From Escherichia coli (GTDB taxonomy: Bacteria; Pseudomonadota; Gammaproteobacteria; Enterobacterales; Enterobacteriaceae): DNA of 64,000 nucleotides. Each line of letters begins with the position of its first letter. Within the stretch, counting starts at the first letter, position 1. The notes below the pieces were generated by a model. It was not told the DNA's origin, ran no database searches, and saw only the letters and a list, made by a program, of their open reading frames with translations. A program made the translations under genes and the position numbers. The stretch is taken from the NCBI RefSeq assembly GCF_041886205.1, contig NZ_CP169029.1. The stretch is one strand, 5' to 3'. Positions 1 through 54,181 of the stretch are shown in pieces.

Positions 1-2
1 AC

Positions 3-269
3 AAGCGCGGTCATGGTGACGAGATTTGGCCCGCGGTGAAACCGGTGTACGAAAAAATGGCGGACATTGTCGCCCGGCATATTGAAGGGCAGGGCATTAC
101 TGATTTATGGCTGGCGGGCGGCTCTTGTATGCAACCGGGCGTGGCGGAACTGTTTCGCAAACAATTCCCGGCGTTAAAGGTGCATTTACCGCAGCACAGT
201 TTGTTTATGACCCCGCTGGCGATCGCCAGTAGTGGGCGAGAGAAAGCGGAGGGGCTATATGCAAAATGA
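3..269 (+). CDS. eutJ: Ethanolamine utilization protein EutJ, C-terminal part (5' end lies outside the window)
   Basis: Open frame from window start with no stop until 269; overlaps eutG start; synteny with eut operon. Confidence 0.75.
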   Translation, partial: KRGHGDEIWPAVKPVYEKMADIVARHIEGQGITDLWLAGGSCMQPGVAELFRKQFPALKVHLPQHSLFMTPLAIASSGREKAEGLYAK

Positions 270-1446
270 ATTGCAGACCGCGCTCTTTCAGGCGTTCGAT
301 ACCCTGAATCTGCAACGGGTAAAAACATTTAGCGTTCCACCGGTGACGCTTTGCGGTCCGGGCGCGGTGAGCAGTTGCGGGCAGCAAGCGCAAACGCGTG
401 GGCTGAAACATCTGTTCGTGATGGCAGACAGCTTTTTGCATCAGGCGGGGATGACCGCCGGGCTGACGCGTAGCCTGGCCGTTAAAGGCATCGCCATGAC
501 GCTCTGGCCGTGTCCGGTGGGCGAACCGTGCATTACTGACGTGTGTGCAGCCGTGGCGCAGTTGCGTGAATCAGGCTGTGACGGGGTGATTGCGTTTGGC
601 GGCGGCTCGGTGCTGGATGCAGCAAAAGCCGTGGCGTTGCTGGTGACGAACCCCGATAGCACGCTGGCGGAAATGTCAGAAACCAGCGTTCTGCAACCGC
701 GCCTGCCGTTGATTGCCATTCCAACGACCGCCGGAACCGGCTCTGAAACCACCAACGTAACGGTGATTATCGACGCGGTGAGCGGGCGCAAGCAGGTGTT
801 AGCCCATGCCTCGCTGATGCCGGATGTGGCGATTCTCGACGCCGCATTGACCGAAGGTGTGCCGTCGCATGTCACGGCGATGACCGGTATTGACGCGTTA
901 ACCCATGCCATTGAAGCGTACAGCGCGCTGAACGCCACACCGTTTACTGACAGTCTGGCGATTGGCGCTATTGCGATGATTGGCAAATCGCTGCCGAAAG
1001 CGGTGGGCTACGGTCATGACCTTGCCGCGCGCGAGAGCATGTTACTGGCTTCATGTATGGCGGGAATGGCGTTTTCCAGTGCGGGGCTTGGGTTGTGCCA
1101 CGCGATGGCGCATCAGCCAGGGGCGGCGCTGCATATTCCACACGGTCTGGCGAACGCCATGTTGCTGCCAACGGTGATGGAATTTAACCGGATGGTTTGT
1201 CGCGAACGGTTTAGTCAGATTGGTCGGGCACTGCGAACTAAAAAATCCGACGATCGTGACGCTATTAACGCGGTAAGTGAGCTGATTGCGGAAGTTGGGA
1301 TTGGTAAACGACTGGGCGATGTTGGCGCGACATCTGCGCATTACGGTGCATGGGCGCAGGCCGCGCAGGAAGATATTTGTCTGCGCAGCAACCCGCGTAC
1401 CGCCAGCCTGGAACAGATTGTCGGACTGTACGCGGCGGCGCAATAA
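259..1446 (+). CDS. eutG: Ethanolamine utilization alcohol dehydrogenase EutG (iron-containing ADH family)
   Basis: ORF track 232..1446; start moved to internal ATG (MQNELQTALFQ) preceded by GAGGGG SD; 395 aa as expected. Confidence 0.9.
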   Translation: MQNELQTALFQAFDTLNLQRVKTFSVPPVTLCGPGAVSSCGQQAQTRGLKHLFVMADSFLHQAGMTAGLTRSLAVKGIAMTLWPCPVGEPCITDVCAAVAQLRESGCDGVIAFGGGSVLDAAKAVALLVTNPDSTLAEMSETSVLQPRLPLIAIPTTAGTGSETTNVTVIIDAVSGRKQVLAHASLMPDVAILDAALTEGVPSHVTAMTGIDALTHAIEAYSALNATPFTDSLAIGAIAMIGKSLPKAVGYGHDLAARESMLLASCMAGMAFSSAGLGLCHAMAHQPGAALHIPHGLANAMLLPTVMEFNRMVCRERFSQIGRALRTKKSDDRDAINAVSELIAEVGIGKRLGDVGATSAHYGAWAQAAQEDICLRSNPRTASLEQIVGLYAAAQ

Positions 1447-1448
1447 AT

Positions 1449-1731
<283 letters not shown>

Positions 1732-1762
1732 AATAAATAACAACTAACAGGGAGTAAAGGCG

Positions 1763-2989
1763 ATGGGAATTAACGAAATCATCATGTACATCATGATGTT
1801 CTTTATGCTGATAGCTGCCGTAGACAGGATCCTGTCGCAGTTCGGCGGTTCTGCTCGTTTCCTCGGTAAGTTCGGTAAAAGTATCGAAGGATCAGGCGGT
1901 CAGTTCGAAGAAGGCTTTATGGCAATGGGCGCTCTGGGTCTGGCGATGGTCGGTATGACCGCGCTGGCACCGGTACTGGCTCACGTACTCGGGCCGGTAA
2001 TTATCCCGGTTTACGAAATGCTCGGCGCAAACCCGTCAATGTTCGCCGGAACGCTGCTGGCGTGCGATATGGGCGGCTTCTTCCTCGCCAAAGAGCTGGC
2101 GGGCGGCGACGTAGCAGCGTGGCTATACTCTGGGTTAATTCTCGGGTCGATGATGGGGCCAACGATTGTGTTTTCCATTCCGGTGGCGCTCGGCATTATC
2201 GAACCTTCTGACCGTCGTTATCTGGCGCTCGGCGTGCTGGCGGGCATTGTGACCATTCCGATTGGCTGTATTGCTGGTGGTCTGGTTGCTATGTACTCCG
2301 GTGTGCAGATCAATGGTCAGCCGGTGGAATTCACCTTTGCGCTGATCCTGATGAACATGATCCCGGTACTTATCGTTGCGGTGCTGGTGGCGCTGGGGCT
2401 GAAATTCATCCCGGAAAAAATGATCAACGGCTTCCAGATCTTCGCCAAATTCCTCGTTGCATTGATCACCCTCGGTCTTGCTGCCGCGGTAGTGAAATTC
2501 CTCCTTGGCTGGGAACTGATCCCCGGTCTGGACCCTATCTTTATGGCTCCTGGCGATAAACCCGGTGAAGTGATGCGCGCCATTGAAGTTATCGGTTCTA
2601 TCTCCTGCGTGCTGTTAGGGGCGTATCCAATGGTGCTGCTGCTGACTCGCTGGTTTGAAAAACCGCTGATGAGCGTCGGTAAACTACTGAATATGAACAA
2701 CATTGCGGCAGCCGGCATGGTGGCAACGCTTGCCAACAACATCCCGATGTTTGGCATGATGAAGCAGATGGATACCCGCGGCAAAGTCATCAACTGCGCC
2801 TTCGCCGTTTCCGCTGCTTTCGCCCTGGGTGACCACTTAGGCTTCGCCGCTGCCAACATGAACGCCATGATCTTCCCGATGATTGTCGGCAAGTTGATCG
2901 GCGGCGTAACGGCGATTGGCGTGGCGATGATGCTGGTGCCAAAAGAAGACGCGACCACGACTAAAACCGAAGCGGAGGCACAATCGTGA
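1763..2989 (+). CDS. eutH: Ethanolamine permease EutH
   Basis: 408-aa hydrophobic multi-pass membrane protein; SD GGAG upstream; synteny. Confidence 0.9.
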   Translation: MGINEIIMYIMMFFMLIAAVDRILSQFGGSARFLGKFGKSIEGSGGQFEEGFMAMGALGLAMVGMTALAPVLAHVLGPVIIPVYEMLGANPSMFAGTLLACDMGGFFLAKELAGGDVAAWLYSGLILGSMMGPTIVFSIPVALGIIEPSDRRYLALGVLAGIVTIPIGCIAGGLVAMYSGVQINGQPVEFTFALILMNMIPVLIVAVLVALGLKFIPEKMINGFQIFAKFLVALITLGLAAAVVKFLLGWELIPGLDPIFMAPGDKPGEVMRAIEVIGSISCVLLGAYPMVLLLTRWFEKPLMSVGKLLNMNNIAAAGMVATLANNIPMFGMMKQMDTRGKVINCAFAVSAAFALGDHLGFAAANMNAMIFPMIVGKLIGGVTAIGVAMMLVPKEDATTTKTEAEAQS

Positions 2990-4389
2990 ACACTCGCCAG
3001 CTATTGAGCGTCGGTATCGATATCGGCACCACCACCACCCAGGTGATTTTCTCCCACCTGGAACTGGTTAACCGTGCGGCGGTGTCGCAGGTGCCGCGCT
3101 ACGAATTCATCAAACGCGAAATTAGCTGGCAAAGCCCGGTGTACTTTACCCCTGTCGATAAACAGGGTGGTTTAAAAGAAGCGGAACTGAAATCGCTGAT
3201 TTTAGAGCAATATCAGGCTGCGGGCATTGCGCCGGAAAGCGTTGATTCTGGTGCCATCATCATCACCGGTGAAAGCGCGAAAACCCGCAATGCTCGCCCG
3301 GCGGTGATGGCGCTCTCTCAATCGCTGGGGGATTTTGTCGTTGCCAGCGCCGGGCCGCACCTCGAATCCGTGATCGCCGGTCACGGAGCCGGGGCACAAA
3401 CCCTTTCTGAACAACGGCTGTGTCGGGTACTGAATATCGACATCGGCGGTGGCACCGCGAACTACGCCCTGTTCGATGCCGGAAAAATCAGCGGCACCGC
3501 CTGCCTCAACGTCGGTGGTCGCCTGCTGGAAACCGACAGCCAGGGGCGCGTGGTTTACGCTCATAAACCGGGGCAGATGATTGTGGATGAGTGCTTCGGT
3601 GCAGGCACTGACGCCCGTTCGCTGACCGGCGCGCAGCTGGTGCAGGTTACCCGGCGGATGGCGGCGCTGATTGTCGAAGTGATTGACGGAACGCTTTCGC
3701 CGCTCGCGCAGGCATTGATGCAAACCGGTTTGCTGCCCGCAGGTGTTACGCCCGAAATCATTACGCTTTCTGGCGGCGTGGGCGAATGTTATCGCCACCA
3801 GCCCGCCGACCCGTTCTGTTTTGCCGATATTGGCCCACTTCTGGCAACGGCGCTGCATGACCATCCGCGCCTGCGTGAGATGAATGTGCAGTTTCCAGCG
3901 CAAACCGTACGCGCCACGGTGATTGGCGCGGGTGCACATACCCTTTCGCTCTCTGGCAGCACAATCTGGCTGGAGGGCGTACAACTGCCGCTGCGCAATT
4001 TGCCGGTGGCGATCCCAATTGATGAAACGGATCTGGTGTGTGCCTGGCAACAGGCGCTGATTCAGCTGGATCTTGATCCTAAAACTGACGCGTACGTGCT
4101 GGCGCTTCCCGCCTCGCTGCCTGTGCGTTACGCCGCGGTACTGACGGTCATCAACGCGCTGGTCGATTTCGTCGCGCGTTTTCCGAATCCGCATCCCCTG
4201 CTGGTGGTGGCCGGGCAGGACTTTGGTAAAGCTCTGGGCATGTTGTTGCGCCCACAGCTACAACAACTCCCGTTGGCAGTCATTGACGAAGTGATTGTCC
4301 GCGCGGGGGACTATATCGACATTGGTACGCCTCTTTTTGGCGGATCGGTTGTGCCGGTGACGGTGAAATCACTCGCATTTCCTTCCTGA
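2986..4389 (+). CDS. eutA: Ethanolamine ammonia-lyase reactivating factor EutA
   Basis: 467 aa; ATGA overlap with eutH stop; synteny. Confidence 0.9.
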   Translation: MNTRQLLSVGIDIGTTTTQVIFSHLELVNRAAVSQVPRYEFIKREISWQSPVYFTPVDKQGGLKEAELKSLILEQYQAAGIAPESVDSGAIIITGESAKTRNARPAVMALSQSLGDFVVASAGPHLESVIAGHGAGAQTLSEQRLCRVLNIDIGGGTANYALFDAGKISGTACLNVGGRLLETDSQGRVVYAHKPGQMIVDECFGAGTDARSLTGAQLVQVTRRMAALIVEVIDGTLSPLAQALMQTGLLPAGVTPEIITLSGGVGECYRHQPADPFCFADIGPLLATALHDHPRLREMNVQFPAQTVRATVIGAGAHTLSLSGSTIWLEGVQLPLRNLPVAIPIDETDLVCAWQQALIQLDLDPKTDAYVLALPASLPVRYAAVLTVINALVDFVARFPNPHPLLVVAGQDFGKALGMLLRPQLQQLPLAVIDEVIVRAGDYIDIGTPLFGGSVVPVTVKSLAFPS

Positions 4390-4400
4390 GGGAACGACTT

Positions 4401-5762
4401 ATGAAACTAAAGACCACATTGTTCGGCAATGTATATCAGTTTAAGGATGTAAAAGAGGTGCTGGCTAAAGCCAACGAACTGCGTTCGGGGGATGTGCTGG
4501 CGGGCGTTGCAGCGGCAAGCTCACAGGAGCGCGTGGCGGCAAAGCAGGTGTTGTCGGAAATGACCGTAGCGGACATCCGCAATAATCCGGTAATTGCCTA
4601 TGAAGATGACTGCGTGACGCGGCTGATTCAGGACGATGTTAACGAAACGGCCTACAACCAGATTAAAAACTGGAGCATCAGCGAACTGCGTGAGTATGTG
4701 CTGAGCGATGAAACCAGCGTGGACGACATTGCCTTTACCCGCAAAGGGCTGACCTCGGAAGTGGTCGCGGCGGTAGCGAAGATTTGCTCCAACGCGGACC
4801 TGATCTACGGCGCGAAGAAAATGCCGGTAATCAAAAAGGCCAATACCACCATCGGTATTCCGGGCACCTTTAGCGCCCGTTTGCAGCCAAATGACACCCG
4901 TGACGACGTGCAAAGTATCGCCGCGCAAATCTACGAAGGGCTTTCCTTCGGGGTGGGTGATGCGGTGATCGGCGTTAACCCGGTGACAGACGACGTGGAA
5001 AACTTAAGCCGCGTGTTGGACACCATTTATGGCGTGATCGACAAATTCAACATCCCAACTCAGGGCTGCGTACTGGCGCACGTCACCACCCAGATCGAAG
5101 CGATTCGTCGCGGCGCACCAGGCGGGCTGATTTTCCAGAGTATCTGTGGCAGCGAAAAAGGGCTGAAAGAGTTTGGCGTGGAACTGGCGATGCTCGATGA
5201 AGCACGCGCAGTGGGCGCGGAGTTCAACCGTATCGCCGGGGAAAACTGCCTCTACTTCGAAACCGGGCAGGGTTCTGCGCTATCCGCTGGCGCTAACTTC
5301 GGCGCAGACCAGGTGACGATGGAAGCACGTAACTATGGGCTGGCGCGTCATTACGATCCGTTTATCGTCAACACCGTGGTCGGCTTTATTGGGCCGGAGT
5401 ATCTCTACAACGATCGCCAGATTATCCGTGCGGGCTTAGAAGATCACTTTATGGGCAAGCTGAGCGGCATCTCTATGGGCTGTGACTGCTGCTACACCAA
5501 CCACGCTGACGCTGACCAGAACCTCAACGAAAACCTGATGATCCTGCTCGCCACCGCAGGCTGCAACTACATCATGGGGATGCCGCTGGGCGATGACATC
5601 ATGCTCAACTATCAGACCACCGCATTCCACGACACTGCCACTGTGCGTCAGTTACTCAACCTGCGCCCGTCACCGGAGTTTGAACGCTGGCTGGAAAGCA
5701 TGGGCATTATGGCAAACGGTCGCCTGACCAAACGGGCGGGCGATCCGTCACTGTTCTTCTGA
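4401..5762 (+). CDS. eutB: Ethanolamine ammonia-lyase large subunit EutB
   Basis: 453 aa; recognised sequence; follows eutA after an 11-bp gap. Confidence 0.93.
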   Translation: MKLKTTLFGNVYQFKDVKEVLAKANELRSGDVLAGVAAASSQERVAAKQVLSEMTVADIRNNPVIAYEDDCVTRLIQDDVNETAYNQIKNWSISELREYVLSDETSVDDIAFTRKGLTSEVVAAVAKICSNADLIYGAKKMPVIKKANTTIGIPGTFSARLQPNDTRDDVQSIAAQIYEGLSFGVGDAVIGVNPVTDDVENLSRVLDTIYGVIDKFNIPTQGCVLAHVTTQIEAIRRGAPGGLIFQSICGSEKGLKEFGVELAMLDEARAVGAEFNRIAGENCLYFETGQGSALSAGANFGADQVTMEARNYGLARHYDPFIVNTVVGFIGPEYLYNDRQIIRAGLEDHFMGKLSGISMGCDCCYTNHADADQNLNENLMILLATAGCNYIMGMPLGDDIMLNYQTTAFHDTATVRQLLNLRPSPEFERWLESMGIMANGRLTKRAGDPSLFF

Positions 5763-5782
5763 TGACGCGGAGATAACACATC

Positions 5783-6667
5783 ATGGATCAAAAACAGATT
5801 GAAGAAATTGTACGCAGCGTGATGGCGTCAATGGGACAAGCGGCCCCCGCGCCGTCAGAAGCAAAGTGCGCCACCACCTGTGCGGCACCGGTGACCTCGG
5901 AAAGCTGCGCGCTGGATTTAGGCTCTGCGGAAGCAAAAGCGTGGATTGGCGTTGAAAACCCGCATCGCGCAGACGTATTAACAGAACTGCGCCGCAGCAC
6001 CGTGGCCCGCGTTTGTACCGGTCGTGCCGGTCCGCGTCCACGTACTCAGGCGCTGCTGCGTTTCCTGGCCGATCACTCTCGTTCGAAAGATACCGTACTG
6101 AAAGAAGTGCCGGAAGAGTGGGTGAAAGCACAAGGCTTGTTGGAAGTCCGCTCCGAAATTAGCGACAAAAATCTCTACCTGACTCGCCCGGATATGGGCC
6201 GCCGCCTGTGTGCAGAAGCTGTTGAAGCGCTGAAAGCACAGTGTGTTGCTAATCCGGACGTACAGGTCGTTATTTCTGATGGCCTGTCAACTGATGCGAT
6301 CACCGTGAACTACGAAGAGATCCTGCCACCGCTGATGGCGGGCCTGAAACAGGCCGGGCTGAAAGTCGGCACGCCATTCTTTGTTCGTTATGGTCGCGTG
6401 AAGATTGAAGATCAGATCGGTGAGATCCTCGGCGCGAAAGTAGTGATCCTGTTAGTGGGCGAACGCCCGGGATTAGGGCAGTCAGAAAGCCTCTCCTGCT
6501 ACGCCGTTTACTCACCGCGTATGGCGACCACCGTTGAGGCCGATCGCACCTGCATCTCAAACATTCACCAGGGCGGCACGCCGCCGGTTGAAGCCGCAGC
6601 GGTAATTGTGGATTTGGCGAAACGAATGCTGGAGCAGAAAGCATCCGGCATCAACATGACCCGATAA
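5783..6667 (+). CDS. eutC: Ethanolamine ammonia-lyase small subunit EutC
   Basis: 294 aa; N-terminus [13 protein letters not shown]; synteny. Confidence 0.9.
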
Positions 6668-6676
6668 GGAGGCATC

Positions 6677-7336
6677 ATGCCAGCTTTAGATTTGATTCGA
6701 CCGTCGGTAACCGCCATGCGGGTGATTGCCTCCGTTAACGCCGAATTTGCGCGTGAACTAAAATTGCCGCCGCATATTCGTAGCCTTGGGCTGATTTCTG
6801 CCGACTCCGATGACGTCACCTACATTGCCGCTGACGAAGCGACCAAACAGGCGATGGTCGAAGTGGTGTATGGCCGCTCGCTGTATGCGGGAGCTGCACA
6901 CGGACCGTCACCGACTGCCGGTGAAGTGCTGATTATACTGGGTGGGCCAAACCCGGCGGAAGTGCGTGCCGGTCTGGATGCGATGGTTGCACATATTGAA
7001 AATGGCGCTGCTTTCCAGTGGGCTAATGACGCAGAAAACACCGCATTCCTGGCACATGTAGTTTCGCGTACCGGTTCTTATCTCTCATCAACCGCCGGGA
7101 TCACGCTTGGCGATCCGATGGCGTATCTGGTGGCACCGCCGCTGGAAGCGACCTACGGCATTGATGCAGCGTTGAAATCTGCCGACGTACAGCTGGTGAC
7201 CTATGTCCCGCCACCGTCTGAAACCAACTACTCGGCAGCATTTTTAACCGGTAGCCAGGCCGCGTGTAAAGCAGCCTGTAACGCCTTTACCGATGCAGTG
7301 CTGGAAATCGCGCGTAATCCAATCCAGCGTGCGTAA
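6677..7336 (+). CDS. eutL: Bacterial microcompartment shell protein EutL
   Basis: 219 aa; synteny within eut operon. Confidence 0.9.
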
Positions 7337-7348
7337 CGGAGGTTGCCG

Positions 7349-7849
7349 ATGATCAATGCACTGGGATTGCTGGAAGTGGACGGCATGGTCGCCGCGATAG
7401 ATGCAGCGGATGCCATGCTCAAAGCAGCTAACGTTCGTCTGCTCAGTCACGAAGTGCTTGACCCTGGTCGCTTAACGCTGGTGGTGGAAGGCGATCTGGC
7501 GGCGTGTCGTGCGGCGCTGGACGCAGGTTGTGCTGCCGCGATGCGTACCGGGCGTGTCATCAGCCGCAAGGAGATCGGTCGGCCAGACGATGACACCCAG
7601 TGGCTGGTTACTGGCTTTAACCGCCAGCCGAAGCAACCCGTAAAGGAACCCGACGCGCCAGTTATCGTCGCCGAATCTGCTGACGAGTTGTTGGCGCTGT
7701 TAACATCAGTACGTCAGGGAATGACGGCAGGAGAAGTGGCTGCCCACTTTGGCTGGCCGCTGGAAAAAGCCAGAAATGCGCTCGAACAGCTCTTTTCTGC
7801 CGGGACGTTACGTAAACGCAGTAGTCGTTATCGTCTCAAGCCCCATTAA
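7349..7849 (+). CDS. eutK: Bacterial microcompartment shell protein EutK (BMC domain plus C-terminal nucleic-acid-binding-like tail)
   Basis: ORF track 7343..7849 (TTG); ATG at 7349 gives 166 aa with ACGGAGG SD. Confidence 0.85.
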   Translation: MINALGLLEVDGMVAAIDAADAMLKAANVRLLSHEVLDPGRLTLVVEGDLAACRAALDAGCAAAMRTGRVISRKEIGRPDDDTQWLVTGFNRQPKQPVKEPDAPVIVAESADELLALLTSVRQGMTAGEVAAHFGWPLEKARNALEQLFSAGTLRKRSSRYRLKPH

Positions 7850-7894
7850 CCTGTCGGAGGTGCCGGGTGTCCTACAACACCCGGCATTAACATC

Positions 7895-8947
7895 ATGAAA
7901 AAGACCCGTACAGCCAATTTGCACCATCTTTATCATGAACCCTTACCCGAAAACCTGAAGCTCACGCCGAAGGTCGAAGTGGATAATGTTCATCAACGAC
8001 AGACAACGGATGTCTATGAACATGCTTTAACGATTACCGCCTGGCAGCAGATTTACGATCAGCTGCATCCGGGCAAGTTTCATGGTGAATTTACGGAAAT
8101 TCTACTCGATGATATTCAGGTTTTTCGTGAATACACCGGTCTGGCGCTGCGTCAGTCGTGCCTGGTCTGGCCGAACTCGTTCTGGTTTGGCATTCCGGCG
8201 ACGCGCGGTGAGCAGGGATTTATCGGTTCGCAATGTCTGGGAAGCGCGGAAATCGCCACCCGCCCTGGTGGCACTGAATTTGAACTGAGCACGCCGGATG
8301 ATTACACGATCCTGAGCGTGGTGCTTTCTGAAGATGTCATCACCCGGCAGGCTAACTTTTTGCATAACCCGGATCGGGTATTACATATGCTGCGTAGCCA
8401 GTCGGCGCTGGAAGTGAAAGAGCAGCATAAAGCCGCGCTGTGGGGCTTTGTCCAACAGGCGCTGGCGACGTTTTGCGAGAACCCGGAAAATCTCCATCAG
8501 CCTGCAGTGCGAAAAGTGCTGGGGGATAATTTGCTAATGGCGATGGGGGCGATGCTGGAAGACGCGCAACCAATGGTGACGGCGGAAAGCATCAGCCATC
8601 AGAGCTACCGTAGATTACTTTCCCGCGCCCGTGAATATGTGCTGGAAAATATGTCTGAGCCGGTGACGGTGCTGGACTTGTGTAATCAACTGCATGTCAG
8701 TCGCCGCACGCTACAAAACGCGTTTCACGCTATTTTAGGCATTGGCCCAAACGCGTGGCTGAAACGCATTCGCCTGAACGCCGTACGCCGCGAACTGATA
8801 AGCCCGTGGTCGCAAAGCACAACGGTAAAAGACGCCGCCATGCAGTGGGGATTCTGGCATCTGGGGCAATTTGCCACGGATTACCAGCAGCTGTTTGCCG
8901 AGAAGCCGTCGTTGACGTTGCATCAGCGGATGCGGGAATGGGGGTGA
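7895..8947 (+). CDS. eutR: AraC-family transcriptional activator of the eut operon, EutR
   Basis: 350 aa; C-terminal AraC-type HTH region; synteny. Confidence 0.9.
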
Positions 8948-8952
8948 GGGAG

Positions 8953-9855
<903 letters not shown>

Positions 9856-10725
9856 TTATCGCTTTTTCGAATGTGCTTTCTGGTTGTCGAACCAGTGGAA
9901 ATAACTGATCACGCCTTCAGCAATCGCTGTGGCGATTTTCTGACGAAACGCCGCCGTGCCTAACAGCCGCTCTTCTTCCGGGTTGGTGATAAACGAGGTT
10001 TCCACCAGCACCGAAGGAACCGACGGCGATTTCAACACCACAAACGCGGCTTGTTCGGTGTTGCGGCTGTGCAGTTTATGCACCGGCTTAATCTTCTTCA
10101 GAATATGCGAGCCAAGCGTCAGGCTGTTTTTAATAGTATCGGTTTGCACCAGATCAAACAGCACTTGCTGCAATAGGTGATCCTTGTCAGTCGCCTTTTT
10201 ACCGGCAACTTCATCGGCGCGGTTTTCGCGTTCAGACAGGTATTTCGCCATTGCGCTACTTGCCCCACGGTTAGAGAGGGCAAATACCGAAGCACCGGCA
10301 GCTTTCGGGTTGGTAAAGCCATCGGCATGAATTGACATAAACAGATCTGCGCCATGTTTATGGGCGATTTCAACGCGATCGTAAAGTGGGATAAACGTAT
10401 CGCCAGAACGCGTTAAACGCGCATCAATCCCATGATTACGCAAAATGGAACGGACGTTTTTAGCAATCGCCAGCACCACATGTTTTTCTTTCGAACCGTT
10501 GCGTCCAATCGCTCCGGTATCAATTCCGCCGTGGCCTGGATCGAGAACAACGACACGTTTGCCGCCAGATTTTTTGGCTTTCGGCTTGCTGTGTCCGTTG
10601 CTGGTTTTTAAAGGTTCGTCTTTGGCGATGGCTTGCGACATTCCTGACAACGTCAGGGCAGCCAAACCGGCTTTCAGCACCTGGCGGCGCGAAGTGAGTG
10701 TTTTTAGTGGTTTAAAAGTGCTCAT
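9856..10725 (-). CDS. amiA: N-acetylmuramoyl-L-alanine amidase AmiA (Tat-signal periplasmic amidase)
   Basis: 289 aa; twin-arginine-like signal (SRRQVLKAGLAAL); amidase_3 motifs. Confidence 0.9.
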   Translation of the reverse strand: MSTFKPLKTLTSRRQVLKAGLAALTLSGMSQAIAKDEPLKTSNGHSKPKAKKSGGKRVVVLDPGHGGIDTGAIGRNGSKEKHVVLAIAKNVRSILRNHGIDARLTRSGDTFIPLYDRVEIAHKHGADLFMSIHADGFTNPKAAGASVFALSNRGASSAMAKYLSERENRADEVAGKKATDKDHLLQQVLFDLVQTDTIKNSLTLGSHILKKIKPVHKLHSRNTEQAAFVVLKSPSVPSVLVETSFITNPEEERLLGTAAFRQKIATAIAEGVISYFHWFDNQKAHSKKR

Positions 10726-34930: not shown

Positions 34931-35857
34931 ATGAATTATTCTTTAAAACAATTAAAGGTTTTCGTCACAGTAGCGCAGGAGAAAAGTTTTAGTCGTGCAG
35001 GAGAGCGTATCGGCTTGAGCCAGTCGGCAGTAAGTCACAGTGTGAAGGAGCTGGAAAATCATACTGGTGTTCGCCTGCTGGACAGAACCACGCGTGAAGT
35101 GGTGCTTACAGATGCAGGGCAGCAGTTGGCTTTGCGTCTTGAGCGACTGCTGGATGAACTTAACAGCACGTTGCGCGATACCGGGCGTATGGGGCAACAA
35201 CTGAGCGGAAAAGTTCGGGTCGCTGCCAGCCAGACCATTTCCGCGCATCTTATTCCGCAATGCATTGCTGAAAGCCATCGCCGCTATCCAGATATTCAGT
35301 TTGTCCTGCACGATCGTCCGCAGCAGTGGGTGATGGAAAGTATTCGCCAGGGAGATGTCGACTTTGGCATCGTCATCGATCCAGGCCCAGTGGGCGATCT
35401 GCAATGTGAAGCGATTCTTTCCGAGCCTTTCTTTCTGCTTTGCCATCGCGATAGCGCTTTGGCCGTGGAAGATTATGTACCCTGGCAGGCATTGCAGGGA
35501 GCGAAATTGGTGTTGCAGGATTACGCGTCAGGCAGCCGACCGCTGATTGACGCAGCGCTGGCGCGCAATGGTATTCAGGCGAATATTGTGCAGGAGATTG
35601 GACATCCGGCGACGCTGTTCCCGATGGTAGCCGCAGGCATCGGCATCAGTATTCTTCCCGCACTGGCGCTACCATTGCCTGAAGGTAGCCCACTGGTGGT
35701 AAAGCGCATTACGCCGGTTGTTGAACGCCAGTTGATGCTGGTGCGCAGGAAGAACCGTTCACTTTCCACCGCCGCTGAAGCGTTATGGGACGTGGTACGA
35801 GACCAGGGCAATGCGCTAATGGCTGGTCGGGAAGGGGATCCGTTGTATCAGATATAG
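34931..35857 (+). CDS. yfeR: LysR-family transcriptional regulator YfeR
   Basis: 308 aa; N-terminal LysR HTH. Confidence 0.82.
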
Positions 35858-36189
35858 ATATCGATATGAGTCGTTTTTTCAACAGGATTTAGAAGGGATA
35901 CATTCAGAGACAAACGCTGCTCTTTCTCCTGCGCCTTTTCTGCCTGCTGTTTCTGCAACTGCGCCAGTTGTGTTTCCAGTAGGGTGATTTGCTGTTGAAT
36001 CAATTCGGCCTGTTTTTGCTTGTCTTCAGCACTGCCGCTAGTGTCTACAATCTCTTTAATTTGTTGAGTGAGTTTGATGATTTGCTGACTTATCCGCGCG
36101 ATTTGTGAAGCAACATCGCTACCTTGTGATGCCCTGTTACTACTCTGTGTTTGTATGGAAGGAATTGAAGTTGAAGAGATAGTGGCCAT
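35848..36189 (-). CDS. FlxA-like small glutamine-rich coiled-coil protein (hypothetical)
   Basis: 113-aa ORF with GAGGA SD 7 nt upstream of ATG; Q/K/L/I-rich heptad pattern resembling FlxA-family proteins; sigma-28-like promoter upstream; 3' end overlaps yfeR by 10 nt. Confidence 0.55.
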
Positions 36190-39404: not shown

Positions 39405-39480
<76 letters not shown>

Positions 39481-51685: not shown

Positions 51686-54181
51686 ATGTTAACGATTCAA
51701 TTTCTCTGTCCTTTGCCTAACGGTCTACATGCTCGTCCGGCGTGGGAACTTAAAGAGCAGTGCAGCCAGTGGCAAAGCGAAATCACTTTTATTAACCATC
51801 GCCAGAACGCAAAGGCCGATGCCAAAAGCTCGCTGGCGCTGATTGGCACCGGCACCCTATTTAATGACAGTTGCAGCCTGAACATTAGCGGCAGCGATGA
51901 AGAGCAGGCGCGGCGCGTGCTGGAAGAGTATATCCAGGTGCGCTTTATCGACAGCGACAGCGTTCAGCCAACGCAGGCAGAACTGACGGCGCATCCGCTG
52001 CCGCGTTCATTAAGCCGCCTTAACCCGGATTTACTGTACGGCAACGTGCTGGCAAGCGGCGTCGGCGTGGGTACACTGACCCTGTTACAAAGCGACAGCC
52101 TCGACAGTTACCGGGCGATCCCGGCCAGTGCGCAAGACTCTACCCGTCTGGAGCACAGCCTGGCAACGCTTGCCGAGCAACTGAACCAGCAGTTGCGTGA
52201 GCGTGACGGCGAAAGCAAAACTATCCTCAGCGCCCATTTATCGCTGATTCAGGATGATGAGTTCGCGGGCAATATCCGTCGCCTGATGGCAGAACAGCAT
52301 CAGGGGCTGGGGGCGGCGATCATCAGCAATATGGAGCAGGTTTGCGACAAGCTTTCTGCCTCTGCCAGCGATTATCTGCGCGAACGTGTTAGCGACATTC
52401 GCGATATCAGCGAACAGTTGCTGCATATCACCTGGCCGGAACTGAAGCCGCGCAACAAGCTGGTGCTGGAAAAACCGACTATTCTGGTGGCCGAGGATTT
52501 AACCCCAAGCCAGTTTTTGAGCCTCGATTTAAAAAATCTTGCAGGCATGATTCTGGAGAAAACTGGGCGCACCTCGCATACCCTGATTCTGGCCCGTGCC
52601 TCGGCGATCCCGGTACTGAGCGGCCTGCCGCTGGATGCGATTGCCCGTTATGCCGGGCAACCGGCGGTGCTTGACGCCCAGTGCGGCGTGCTGGCGATTA
52701 ACCCGAATGACGCGGTGAGCGGTTATTATCAGGTTGCGCAGACGCTGGCGGATAAACGTCAGCAACAACAGGCGCAGGCCGCCGCGCAGCTGGCCTATTC
52801 CCGTGATAACAAGCGCATTGATATCGCAGCGAATATCGGCACCGCTCTGGAAGCACCAGGCGCGTTTGCCAACGGCGCGGAAGGCGTCGGGCTGTTCCGT
52901 ACCGAAATGCTCTATATGGATCGCGAAAGCGCGCCGGACGAGCAGGAGCAATTTGAAGCCTACCAGCAGGTGCTACTGGCAGCGGGCGACAAGCCGATTA
53001 TCTTCCGCACAATGGACATCGGAGGCGATAAAAGCATTCCTTATCTGAATATTCCCCAGGAAGAGAACCCGTTCCTCGGCTATCGCGCGGTACGTATTTA
53101 CCCGGAATTTGCTGGCCTGTTCCGCACTCAACTGCGGGCCATTTTGCGCGCCGCCAGTTTCGGCAACGCCCAGTTGATGATCCCGATGGTCCACAGCCTC
53201 GATCAGATCTTATGGGTGAAGGGCGAGATCCAAAAAGCGATCGTTGAGCTTAAGCGCGATGGCCTGCGTCATGCAGAGACGATTACTCTGGGTATCATGG
53301 TGGAAGTGCCGTCGGTGTGCTACATCATCGACCACTTCTGCGATGAGGTCGATTTCTTCAGTATCGGTTCTAACGACATGACCCAGTATCTGTATGCGGT
53401 CGATCGTAATAACCCGCGCGTATCGCCGCTATATAACCCGATTACGCCATCGTTCCTGCGCATGTTGCAGCAGATTGTTACCACTGCGCATCAGCGGGGC
53501 AAATGGGTAGGCATTTGCGGTGAACTGGGCGGTGAAAGCCGTTATCTGCCGCTACTGCTTGGGCTGGGCCTGGATGAGCTGAGTATGAGTAGCCCGCGCA
53601 TTCCGGCAGTGAAAAGCCAGCTTCGTCAACTGGATAGCGAGGCGTGTCGGGAACTGGCGCGTCAGGCATGTGAATGCCGCAGTGCGCAGGAAATTGAAGC
53701 GTTACTCACCGCCTTTACGCCGGAAGAAGACGTTCGCCCACTGCTGGCGCTGGAGAATATCTTTGTTGATCAGGATTTTAGCAATAAAGAGCAGGCGATC
53801 CAGTTCCTGTGCGGCAACCTCGGAGTTAACGGGCGTACTGAACATCCGTTTGAGCTGGAAGAAGATGTCTGGCAGCGGGAAGAGATTGTCACTACCGGCG
53901 TTGGTTTTGGCGTGGCGATCCCGCACACCAAATCTCAGTGGATCCGTCATTCCAGTATCAGCATTGCCCGGCTGGTGAAACCGGTTGACTGGCAGTCAGA
54001 GATGGGCGAAGTCGAACTGGTGATCATGCTGACGTTGGGTGCTAACGAAGGGATGAACCATGTGAAAGTCTTCTCGCAGCTGGCGCGTAAACTGGTGAAT
54101 AAACACTTCCGCCAGTCGTTGTTTGCCGCGCAAGATGCACAAAGCATCCTGACGCTGCTGGAAACGGAATTAACCTTCTGA
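51686..54181 (+). CDS. fryA: PTS multiphosphoryl transfer protein FryA (HPr-like, Enzyme I-like and EIIA-like domains)
   Basis: 831 aa; internal region paralogous to PtsI (GLFRTE, GSNDMTQY motifs). Confidence 0.85.
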   Translation: MLTIQFLCPLPNGLHARPAWELKEQCSQWQSEITFINHRQNAKADAKSSLALIGTGTLFNDSCSLNISGSDEEQARRVLEEYIQVRFIDSDSVQPTQAELTAHPLPRSLSRLNPDLLYGNVLASGVGVGTLTLLQSDSLDSYRAIPASAQDSTRLEHSLATLAEQLNQQLRERDGESKTILSAHLSLIQDDEFAGNIRRLMAEQHQGLGAAIISNMEQVCDKLSASASDYLRERVSDIRDISEQLLHITWPELKPRNKLVLEKPTILVAEDLTPSQFLSLDLKNLAGMILEKTGRTSHTLILARASAIPVLSGLPLDAIARYAGQPAVLDAQCGVLAINPNDAVSGYYQVAQTLADKRQQQQAQAAAQLAYSRDNKRIDIAANIGTALEAPGAFANGAEGVGLFRTEMLYMDRESAPDEQEQFEAYQQVLLAAGDKPIIFRTMDIGGDKSIPYLNIPQEENPFLGYRAVRIYPEFAGLFRTQLRAILRAASFGNAQLMIPMVHSLDQILWVKGEIQKAIVELKRDGLRHAETITLGIMVEVPSVCYIIDHFCDEVDFFSIGSNDMTQYLYAVDRNNPRVSPLYNPITPSFLRMLQQIVTTAHQRGKWVGICGELGGESRYLPLLLGLGLDELSMSSPRIPAVKSQLRQLDSEACRELARQACECRSAQEIEALLTAFTPEEDVRPLLALENIFVDQDFSNKEQAIQFLCGNLGVNGRTEHPFELEEDVWQREEIVTTGVGFGVAIPHTKSQWIRHSSISIARLVKPVDWQSEMGEVELVIMLTLGANEGMNHVKVFSQLARKLVNKHFRQSLFAAQDAQSILTLLETELTF

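Follow-up and report, generated by a model that had tools for sequence, protein, structure and literature searches.

Positions 4380-4410 of the window, by which we mean the whole 64,000-nucleotide stretch of Escherichia coli DNA analyzed here, are with high confidence the native, unoccupied eutA/eutB junction of the 17-gene enterobacterial eut operon. The sequence and the open reading frame (ORF) coordinates put the eutA stop codon TGA at 4387-4389 and the eutB ATG at 4401, and the ORFs and family matches agree with the boundaries given in the earlier note (eutA ending at 4389, eutB starting at 4401). Between the genes lies an 11-nt spacer (GGGAACGACTT, 4390-4400). The same note had placed a Shine-Dalgarno sequence between the two genes; we do observe a Shine-Dalgarno-like GAGGGA, but it overlaps the eutA TGA and does not lie wholly between them. 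Its match to the consensus and its spacing suggest that GAGGGA (4388-4393) would act as the eutB ribosome-binding site. With the genes 11 nt apart and this putative site overlapping the eutA stop codon, eutA and eutB would be carried on one transcript, starting upstream of eutS, and we predict that eutB translation is probably coupled to eutA termination.

With respect to gene content, the window holds 8 complete genes of the 17; the nine upstream genes (eutS to eutJ) lie outside it, as does the main promoter. All eight encoded proteins, from eutG to eutR, are full length and match their profiles over the entire length or close to it, and the order eutG-eutH-eutA-eutB-eutC-eutL-eutK-eutR, with all genes on the same strand and junctions that are short or overlap, is that of the enterobacterial long eut operon (EUT1), which bears out the earlier reading of the arrangement as intact. 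The nearest complete genome is that of strain 6EVA, with 3 mismatches in 14,400 nt and, over the window as a whole, approximately 25 substitutions, a 1-bp gap, and a 115-bp tRNA-Ala repeat unit; in this genome, eutS to eutJ and the EutR-dependent promoter are present and unflagged, and eutA and eutB coding sequences are annotated at matching coordinates. 6EVA and MG1655 have the same annotated eutB protein (WP_000769961.1). From its sequence, it is plausible that the eut operon is functional in the window strain. The REP/BIME-like array in the eutG-eutH spacer gives two Rfam naRNA4 matches and has one unit fewer in MG1655 than in the window.

Table 1. Features of the eut region, in window coordinates
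Feature	Position	Strand	Evidence or remark
eutJ 3' end	1-269	+	Cut by window start; coordinates transferred from 6EVA annotation
eutG, ethanol dehydrogenase	259-1446	+	NCBIfam NF011998, 1-395/395, 890 bits; annotated in 6EVA
REP/BIME-like tandem array, eutG-eutH spacer	1448-1732	.	2.8 copies of 100-bp unit, Tandem Repeats Finder
eutH, ethanolamine permease	1763-2989	+	NCBIfam NF011665, 1-408/408
eutA, ethanolamine ammonia-lyase reactivase	2986-4389	+	NCBIfam NF007991, 1-467/467, 1070 bits
Block under nucleotide-level constraint	4305-4497	+	Core 4305-4432 nearly invariant; 4433-4497 weaker
Predicted 7-bp hairpin, UUUCCUU-ccu-GAGGGAA	4378-4394	+	RNAalifold consensus, 37 distinct sequences
Putative unoccupied attB, single CTTCCTGA copy	4382-4389	.	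Junctions compared with MG1655 (L001) and strain 30EVA1 (L003)
Shine-Dalgarno-like GAGGGA, eutB	4388-4393	+	7-9 nt before ATG; overlaps eutA stop codon
eutB, ethanolamine ammonia-lyase large subunit	4401-5762	+	NCBIfam NF011649, 665 bits
eutC, ethanolamine ammonia-lyase small subunit	5783-6667	+	NCBIfam NF003971
eutL, microcompartment shell protein	6677-7336	+	NCBIfam NF011934
eutK, microcompartment shell protein	7349-7849	+	NCBIfam NF012010, 1-166/166; start from 6EVA annotation
eutR, AraC-type operon activator	7895-8947	+	NCBIfam NF007522, 1-350/350

In K-12 MG1655, eutA and eutB are not adjacent but split by the 6.79-kb CPZ-55. The annotation of NC_000913.3 places a "cryptic prophage CPZ-55" at 2558691-2565480, flanked by the eutB start (2558679) and the eutA stop (2565481), and the eutA/CPZ-55/eutB layout is the same in another MG1655 record, so the earlier note was correct in placing this prophage in the eutA-eutB interval. 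Comparison of the junctions shows that CPZ-55 is inserted directly after the eutA TGA and ends 11 nt before the eutB start, with an 8-bp duplication, CTTCCTGA, at both of its ends; this duplication has been described before, in a study that found CPZ-55 in 8% of 638 strains (PMC6379469). The window matches MG1655 on either side of the insert, with nothing in between: neither an integrase gene (intZ) nor cargo is found in the 11 nt that separate the two genes, and a search for an integrase or island remnant at 4380-4410 came back empty. Two direct copies of CTTCCTGA were not found in the window, where the sequence occurs once, at 4382-4389; this single copy therefore marks an empty attachment site. 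The window also differs from MG1655 in its sequence, with 95.7-99.2% identity over aligned blocks and further structural differences elsewhere, and the statement that it is not MG1655 stands. The missing CPZ-55 is in itself insufficient to exclude K-12, because a W3110 stock is eut+ (PMC11334477); on our alignments, it is the sequence divergence that excludes it.

CPZ-55 is not the only element found at this position. In strain 30EVA1, the same insertion point and the same 8-bp core are used by another island, 10 kb long, whose integrase is of the IntZ type, and the IntZ-like genes that are not part of a full CPZ-55 share 80-90% identity with IntZ. Window positions 4250-4389 are 100% identical to the attL side in both MG1655 and 30EVA1, and positions 4382-4550 are 98.8-99.4% identical to the attR side in the two. 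These comparisons suggest that the window junction is an attB for IntZ-type tyrosine integrases, with CTTCCTGA at 4382-4389 as the putative crossover core. Since at least two different cargo sets occur there, the site is a hot spot, and it has been called a "prophage insertion hot spot" in the literature (PMC6652756). Among the CPZ-55 proteins, only IntZ and the small-terminase-like YffO have PHROGs matches, and we found no link in the literature that describes CPZ-55 as a phage satellite. In K-12, CPZ-55 is transcribed opposite to the eut genes and cuts eutBCLKR off from the operon promoter.

We observe the uninterrupted eutA-eutB junction in 4,964 of 5,426 complete E. coli genomes (approximately 91%), while full CPZ-55 is present in 213 genomes, mostly K-12 derivatives, and only an intZ-like gene, without full CPZ-55, in about 200 more. 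Outside E. coli, all 39 enterobacterial loci examined (35 species loci from eight named genera and 4 contigs chosen through EutA) have an uninterrupted junction. The 40 nt upstream of the eutB ATG are identical in 35/35 species loci, and the 11-nt spacer, which could be measured cleanly in 33 of these, is also present in all four contigs chosen through EutA. Because the uninterrupted junction is the majority state in E. coli and universal among the 39 outgroup loci, the parsimonious reading of these sequences is that it is ancestral, as the earlier note had proposed. It is the ordinary, common state of E. coli and is already known in the literature. The sequence of the window would also be compatible with an IntZ-type element that was once present in its lineage and was later excised precisely, since site-specific excision is scarless; the site is occupied in approximately 8% of E. 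coli genomes, indicating repeated use, and within K-12 the prophage is present in BW25113, whereas a laboratory stock of W3110 is eut+ (PMC11334477). However, the site is empty in 6EVA, in 91% of E. coli genomes, and in all 39 outgroup loci, and the window has neither a remnant nor a second core copy, so that parsimony favors a site that was never occupied and makes such a secondary loss very improbable.

The most conserved stretch of the eutP-to-hemF region, silent sites included, is a block at the eutA/eutB boundary that spans the last 27 eutA sense codons and the stop codon, the spacer, and the first 32 eutB codons. Across the 35 species loci, identity within this block is 97.5-99.5%, against a background of 0.78-0.90, and third-position identity in its core reaches 0.964, compared to 0.63-0.67 elsewhere. 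The block was confirmed in the contigs chosen independently through EutA, its edges (approximately 4304 and 4497) are constant in all lineages, and its synonymous conservation spans at least eight enterobacterial genera. In the two lineages L044 and L046, whose EutA is approximately 78% identical, it is kept weakly (86-89% identity versus 73-83% in the flanks). When polymorphism within E. coli was compared between the block and flanking controls, one of the controls varied as little as the block did. Separately, a second conserved patch is seen at the eutB/eutC junction.

We tentatively suggest, at somewhat less than even confidence, that these approximately 130-190 nt form an undescribed cis-acting nucleotide element that controls EutB production, that the element is the reason for the IntZ landing site, and that it is split by CPZ-55. 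Such an element would act in the mRNA, on eutB translation or transcript processing, and possible routes include the coupling or gating of eutB translation, mRNA processing, and the binding of a protein or sRNA. Its extreme conservation would explain why mobile elements land there. The hairpin predicted at 4378-4394 would enclose both the eutA stop codon and the eutB Shine-Dalgarno sequence, thus sequestering the latter; since it is invariant, covariation speaks neither for nor against it. Almost nothing varies in the block, and consequently there is almost no covariation, with only the pair 4329/4341 showing two double changes in the RNAalifold analysis of 37 distinct sequences. Plus-strand folding of 4305-4495 is no better than that of shuffled sequences (z = −0.25), and long-range pairing of the block with the eutB/eutC-junction patch is no better than in controls. 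Searches with the covariance models of Rfam 15 gave no match at the junction when the whole window was scanned at gathering thresholds and none in 4100-6000 at E ≤ 10. The searchable literature yielded nothing relevant on an element, sRNA, internal promoter, or synonymous constraint at eutA/eutB, and CsrA has been reported to bind the eutS leader, not the eutA/eutB region.

The conservation could also stem from an overlapping antisense gene or antisense RNA. On the minus strand, AGGAAGGA precedes an ATG at 4378-4376, which starts a frame of 32 codons running to 4280; the six-frame list includes it within 4280-4429 (−). By their coordinates, the third codon positions of eutA are second codon positions of this frame, so that a synonymous substitution in eutA would change the peptide encoded on the opposite strand. 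The minus strand of 4305-4495 folds slightly better than shuffled sequences (z = −1.63), and a terminator scan of 4100-4700 gave two weak terminator-like hairpins on this strand, at 4487-4460. Against this, the same interval has no promoter-like site, sigma-70-like promoters included, on either strand; the final 8 codons (4280-4304) of the frame fall beyond the edge of the block and vary freely; its ATG is destroyed in L044 and L046; its peptide is without recognizable features; and the conserved eutB part (4401-4497) is left unaccounted for. Alternative-frame ORFs across the block are otherwise TTG-started or short. Taken together, these observations make an antisense gene or RNA unlikely.

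Homogenization of the block across genera by mobile-element recombination or gene conversion, instead of host selection, has a precedent in prophage e14, which replaces the 3' end of icd, and would fit an att core near the block center, but we regard it as highly improbable, given that the 8-bp core is all that the islands have in common with the chromosome (19 bp with gaps allowed), that the block is absent from phage and true plasmid records, and that its boundaries are the same in all lineages, with no tract-to-tract variation. The phage collection gave a single match, to an unannotated 4.9-kb fragment of Salmonella, while those in the plasmid collection lie under eutA/eutB annotation or in records of 4.8-5.4 Mb; the search thus found only chromosomal eut loci, and gene conversion from a mobile element was therefore rejected.

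For an annotator, the junction indicates that the strain is not K-12 and that the architecture of its eut operon is normal, which according to published work is needed to use ethanolamine as a nitrogen source in the gut. An uninterrupted eut operon is required for ethanolamine use, and K-12 BW25113 regains growth on ethanolamine as nitrogen source once the prophage has been removed scarlessly (PMC11334477); BW25113 itself shows no eutB induction and no microcompartments (PMC7617246). Ethanolamine growth and microcompartment data for other eut+ E. coli are found in the same two studies (PMC11334477, PMC7617246). The junction is itself a finding of little weight, and the invariant block may matter more. 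If the block is regulatory, a well-studied, virulence-associated pathway would gain a post-transcriptional control point and the mobile elements' choice of site would be explained; the K-12 defect would then involve a lost cis-element in addition to transcriptional polarity.

Compared to the eut locus of K-12 MG1655 (CPZ-55, b2442-b2450), the window has the same flanking genes, eutH-eutA on one side and eutB-eutC-eutL-eutK-eutR-hemF-amiA on the other, and has the eutA stop, the 11-nt eutB leader, and the CTTCCTGA core in common with it, whereas it lacks the 6.79-kb insert, has one copy of the core instead of two, and shows 1-4.3% nucleotide divergence. The 17-gene eutSPQTDMNEJGHABCLKR operon (EUT1) of Salmonella enterica and most E. 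coli has the same order from eutG to eutR and the same 11-nt eutA-eutB spacer, in near-identical sequence (the S. enterica contig has 99.2% identity over 4305-4432), while the eutG-eutH spacer of the window differs from it in its expanded REP array.

P4-type integrases target tRNA genes and e14 targets icd, in both cases by insertion at a 3' end that regenerates the stop codon. As in these elements, the integrase of the IntZ islands adjoins the att site and the target gene, eutA, is left intact; in contrast to them, the shared core at the IntZ site is only 8 bp long and the target lies inside an operon, so that insertion is polar on eutBCLKR. In viruses, FRESCo-type analyses are reported to find regions where excess synonymous constraint marks embedded cis-elements (PMC4376164). 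The eut block differs from such viral regions in having no assignable structure, overlapping ORF, or RNA family, and resembles them in the sharp, lineage-independent drop in synonymous variation that runs across a gene boundary.

The eutA-eutB junction of the window, read directly from the sequence (4380-4410, tccttccTGAgggaacgacttATGaaacta), has a spacer of 11 nt, and the flanking ORFs match EutG, EutH, EutC, EutL, EutK and EutR in NCBIfam, all essentially full length. A GAGGGA motif (4388-4393), 7-9 nt ahead of the eutB ATG, overlaps the stop codon of eutA. Sequence reading, ORF list and NCBIfam matches agree with the coordinates and description in the earlier note, whose observation is confirmed and interpretation supported overall; the uninterrupted junction is itself an ordinary, already known feature.

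Features at the eutA-eutB junction and elsewhere in the window, with block conservation
Feature	Position	Strand	Third-position identity (sites)	Details
eutA ORF	2986..4389	+		467 aa; six-frame ORF list; NCBIfam EutA equivalog 1-467/467, 1070 bits
eutB ORF	4401..5762	+		453 aa; six-frame ORF list; EutB model, 665 bits
Block	4305-4497			last 27 sense codons + stop of eutA, 11-nt spacer, first 32 codons of eutB
Core of block	4305-4432		0.964 (38)
Remainder of block	4433-4497		0.862 (22)
Rest of eutA			0.628 (439)
Rest of eutB			0.665 (398)
S. enterica contig (L043)				block 99.2%; flanks 83% / 89%
L045 (EutA 79% identical)				block 97.7%; flanks 72% / 83%
L044				block 89%; flanks 73-83%
L046				block 86%; flanks 73-79%
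eutB stop/eutC start patch	5690-5820		0.92	60-nt bins 0.98 and 0.935
REP/BIME-like array	1448-1732			2.8 tandem copies of 100-bp unit
Rfam naRNA4 matches	1501-1582, 1601-1682			within the array
tRNA-Ala(GGC)	39405-39480			single gene
407-bp segment	35859-36265			adjoins tRNA-Val/Lys cluster
FlxA-like ORF	35848..36189	-		113 aa
fryA/ptsP-like phosphotransferase gene	51686-54181			intact 831-aa ORF

In MG1655 (NC_000913.3), the feature 'cryptic prophage CPZ-55' is annotated at 2558691-2565480, between the eutB start codon (2558679) and the eutA stop (2565481), with intZ and yffL to yffS on the opposite strand; a second MG1655 record has the identical layout, and the prophage thus lies where the earlier note had placed it. 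Its left junction reads CATTTCCTTCCTGA followed by ATGCGG and its right junction GATTCTTCCTGA followed by GGGAACGACTTATG, indicating that CPZ-55 sits directly after the eutA TGA, flanked by the 8-bp direct repeat CTTCCTGA, with a gapped 19-of-23 similarity extending leftwards. This reading agrees with the 8-bp duplication and conserved short intergenic sequence reported for the site (PMC6379469). The core occurs once in the window, at 4382-4389, indicating that the window junction is an unoccupied attachment site. Among the nine CPZ-55 proteins (L001, an MG1655 record, 3230-10011), only IntZ (integrase) and YffO (small terminase subunit-like) have PHROGs matches, and the element bears more resemblance to a degraded satellite or island than to a phage; the literature search returned no paper classifying it as either.

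A 2-kb query spanning the junction matches 5,423 of 5,426 complete E. coli genomes, and the junction is in one piece in 4,964 of the 5,426 (91.5%) with both this and a 191-nt query. CPZ-55 is found at a coverage of at least 80% in 213 genomes, most of which are K-12 laboratory derivatives; approximately 200 more match its integrase end only, at 80-90% identity. Among the latter is strain 30EVA1, whose 10-kb island (L003 9719-20013) differs from CPZ-55: it bears IS1, murI, gadC, a decarboxylase pseudogene and an intZ homologue and lies at exactly the insertion point of CPZ-55, with the same 8-bp core. In another of them, strain 102651, IS903B truncates eutA. The cargo genes of 102651 are as in 30EVA1, in rearranged order. 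The contents of these two strains indicate diverse cargo among IntZ-type islands at eutA/eutB, and the site is thus a recurrent landing site, which has been described as a 'prophage insertion hot spot' (PMC6652756).

With respect to the ancestral state, each species was represented by one genome and scanned with a degenerate DNA pattern covering eutB codons 6-17, which recovered 35 loci in Citrobacter, Klebsiella, Salmonella, Escherichia, Yokenella, Pluralibacter, Pseudocitrobacter and Intestinirhabdus. In every locus the eutA 3' end plus spacer makes up the 40 nt directly ahead of the eutB ATG, and a clean 11-nt spacer was measured in 33, the EutA alignment of the remaining two being split farther upstream, away from the junction. 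The same spacer is present in all four contigs picked independently via EutA homologues (77-90% identity). Since all 35 species loci and these four contigs are uninterrupted, the adjacent arrangement is by parsimony ancestral, as the earlier note proposed. Secondary loss of an insertion by precise excision is compatible with the sequence of the empty site, but nothing requires it.

The best match to the 2-kb query is the human faecal isolate 6EVA (100%), which differs from the whole window by approximately 25 substitutions, a 1-bp gap and one 115-bp repeat unit. MG1655 is 95.7-99.2% identical in aligned blocks and shows several structural differences, in keeping with the claim that the window is not MG1655. 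Absence of CPZ-55 alone does not exclude K-12, since the W3110 stock used in PMC11334477 is eut+; it is sequence divergence that excludes it, and on that evidence the window is E. coli, not K-12. The eutG-eutH spacer measures 316 bp in the window versus 216 bp in MG1655, which has one REP/BIME-like unit fewer. Both 6EVA and MG1655 have two tRNA-Ala(GGC) copies, 115 bp apart, indicating that the window lacks one repeat unit. The 407-bp segment, which holds most of the FlxA-like ORF, stands in place of the 4.56-kb xapR-xapB-xapA-yfeN segment of MG1655, and at ~24080, between yfeK and cysM, the window is without ~960 bp containing yfeS of MG1655. IS copies near crr and nupC in the MG1655 variant record are not in the window. 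The 6EVA annotation gives the fryA/ptsP-like gene a frameshift, possibly the result of a sequencing error in that genome record.

The earlier note judged the operon likely functional. All eut genes within the window are intact; the window begins inside eutJ, and the nine eut genes and main promoter beyond it are intact in 6EVA. BW25113, a CPZ-55 carrier, shows no eutB induction and no microcompartments (PMC7617246), and after scarless excision of the prophage the ability to grow with ethanolamine as the nitrogen source is regained (PMC11334477).

Alignment of the 35 species loci from eight genera revealed near-invariance from ~4305 to ~4432, less strict on to ~4497 (the block), with invariant runs at 4347-4358, 4360-4385 and 4387-4405 and the 40 nt ahead of eutB identical in 34 of 35 loci. 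Three 60-nt bins covering 4321-4500 show 97.5-99.5% cross-species identity against an eutP-to-hemF background of 0.67-0.95, the only comparable bin being the eutB/eutC junction (0.98); no other part of the eutP-hemF region is as highly conserved as the block. Third-codon-position identity, calculated against the window for 37 loci with an overall identity below 95%, is likewise elevated, with an excess of invariant third positions (Fisher test, p = 2e-8), and block boundaries are alike in all lineages. The scan pattern fixed amino acids only, at 4416-4450, so silent-site invariance is not an artefact of the scan; the pattern could, however, hide lineages without the block, which the independently picked contigs address. 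Their identities indicate strong constraint within the Escherichia-Salmonella-Citrobacter-Klebsiella group that weakens farther out. A second, smaller high-identity patch at the eutB stop and eutC start has no special complementarity to the block. In E. coli EA2 (NZ_CP069710.1 1623119-1623345), 36 bp near the 5' end of eutB are duplicated in tandem and in frame; the duplication is bounded by two native GTGCTGGC repeats and falls within the weaker half of the block.

The sense strand of the block folds no better than shuffled sequence (z = -0.25) and the antisense strand marginally better (z = -1.63); the block has no Rfam match, even at E <= 10, and no sigma-70-like promoter, and covariation is nearly absent because it hardly varies. 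RNAalifold predicts a 7-bp hairpin (UUUCCUU-ccu-GAGGGAA, 4378-4394) that would bury the eutA stop codon and the eutB Shine-Dalgarno sequence; such a hairpin would fit a scheme in which ribosomes completing eutA open up eutB for initiation. Our best guess is that the block may be a cis-acting mRNA element governing eutB translation or transcript processing. Alternatively, an antisense 32-codon frame, with its ATG at 4378-4376 preceded by AGGAAGGA, would turn eutA silent positions into second codon positions and hence account for their invariance. Against this frame, conservation does not extend to its 3' part, L044 and L046 have lost its ATG, and it leaves the conserved part of eutB unexplained. 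Homogenisation across lineages by mobile elements is unlikely, since the islands have only 8 bp in common with the site and phage and plasmid searches found the block in neither. Searches of the available literature, itself incomplete, found no description of the block, which may be both functional and undescribed. Such extreme conservation would also make the block an attractive attB, as with tRNA genes.
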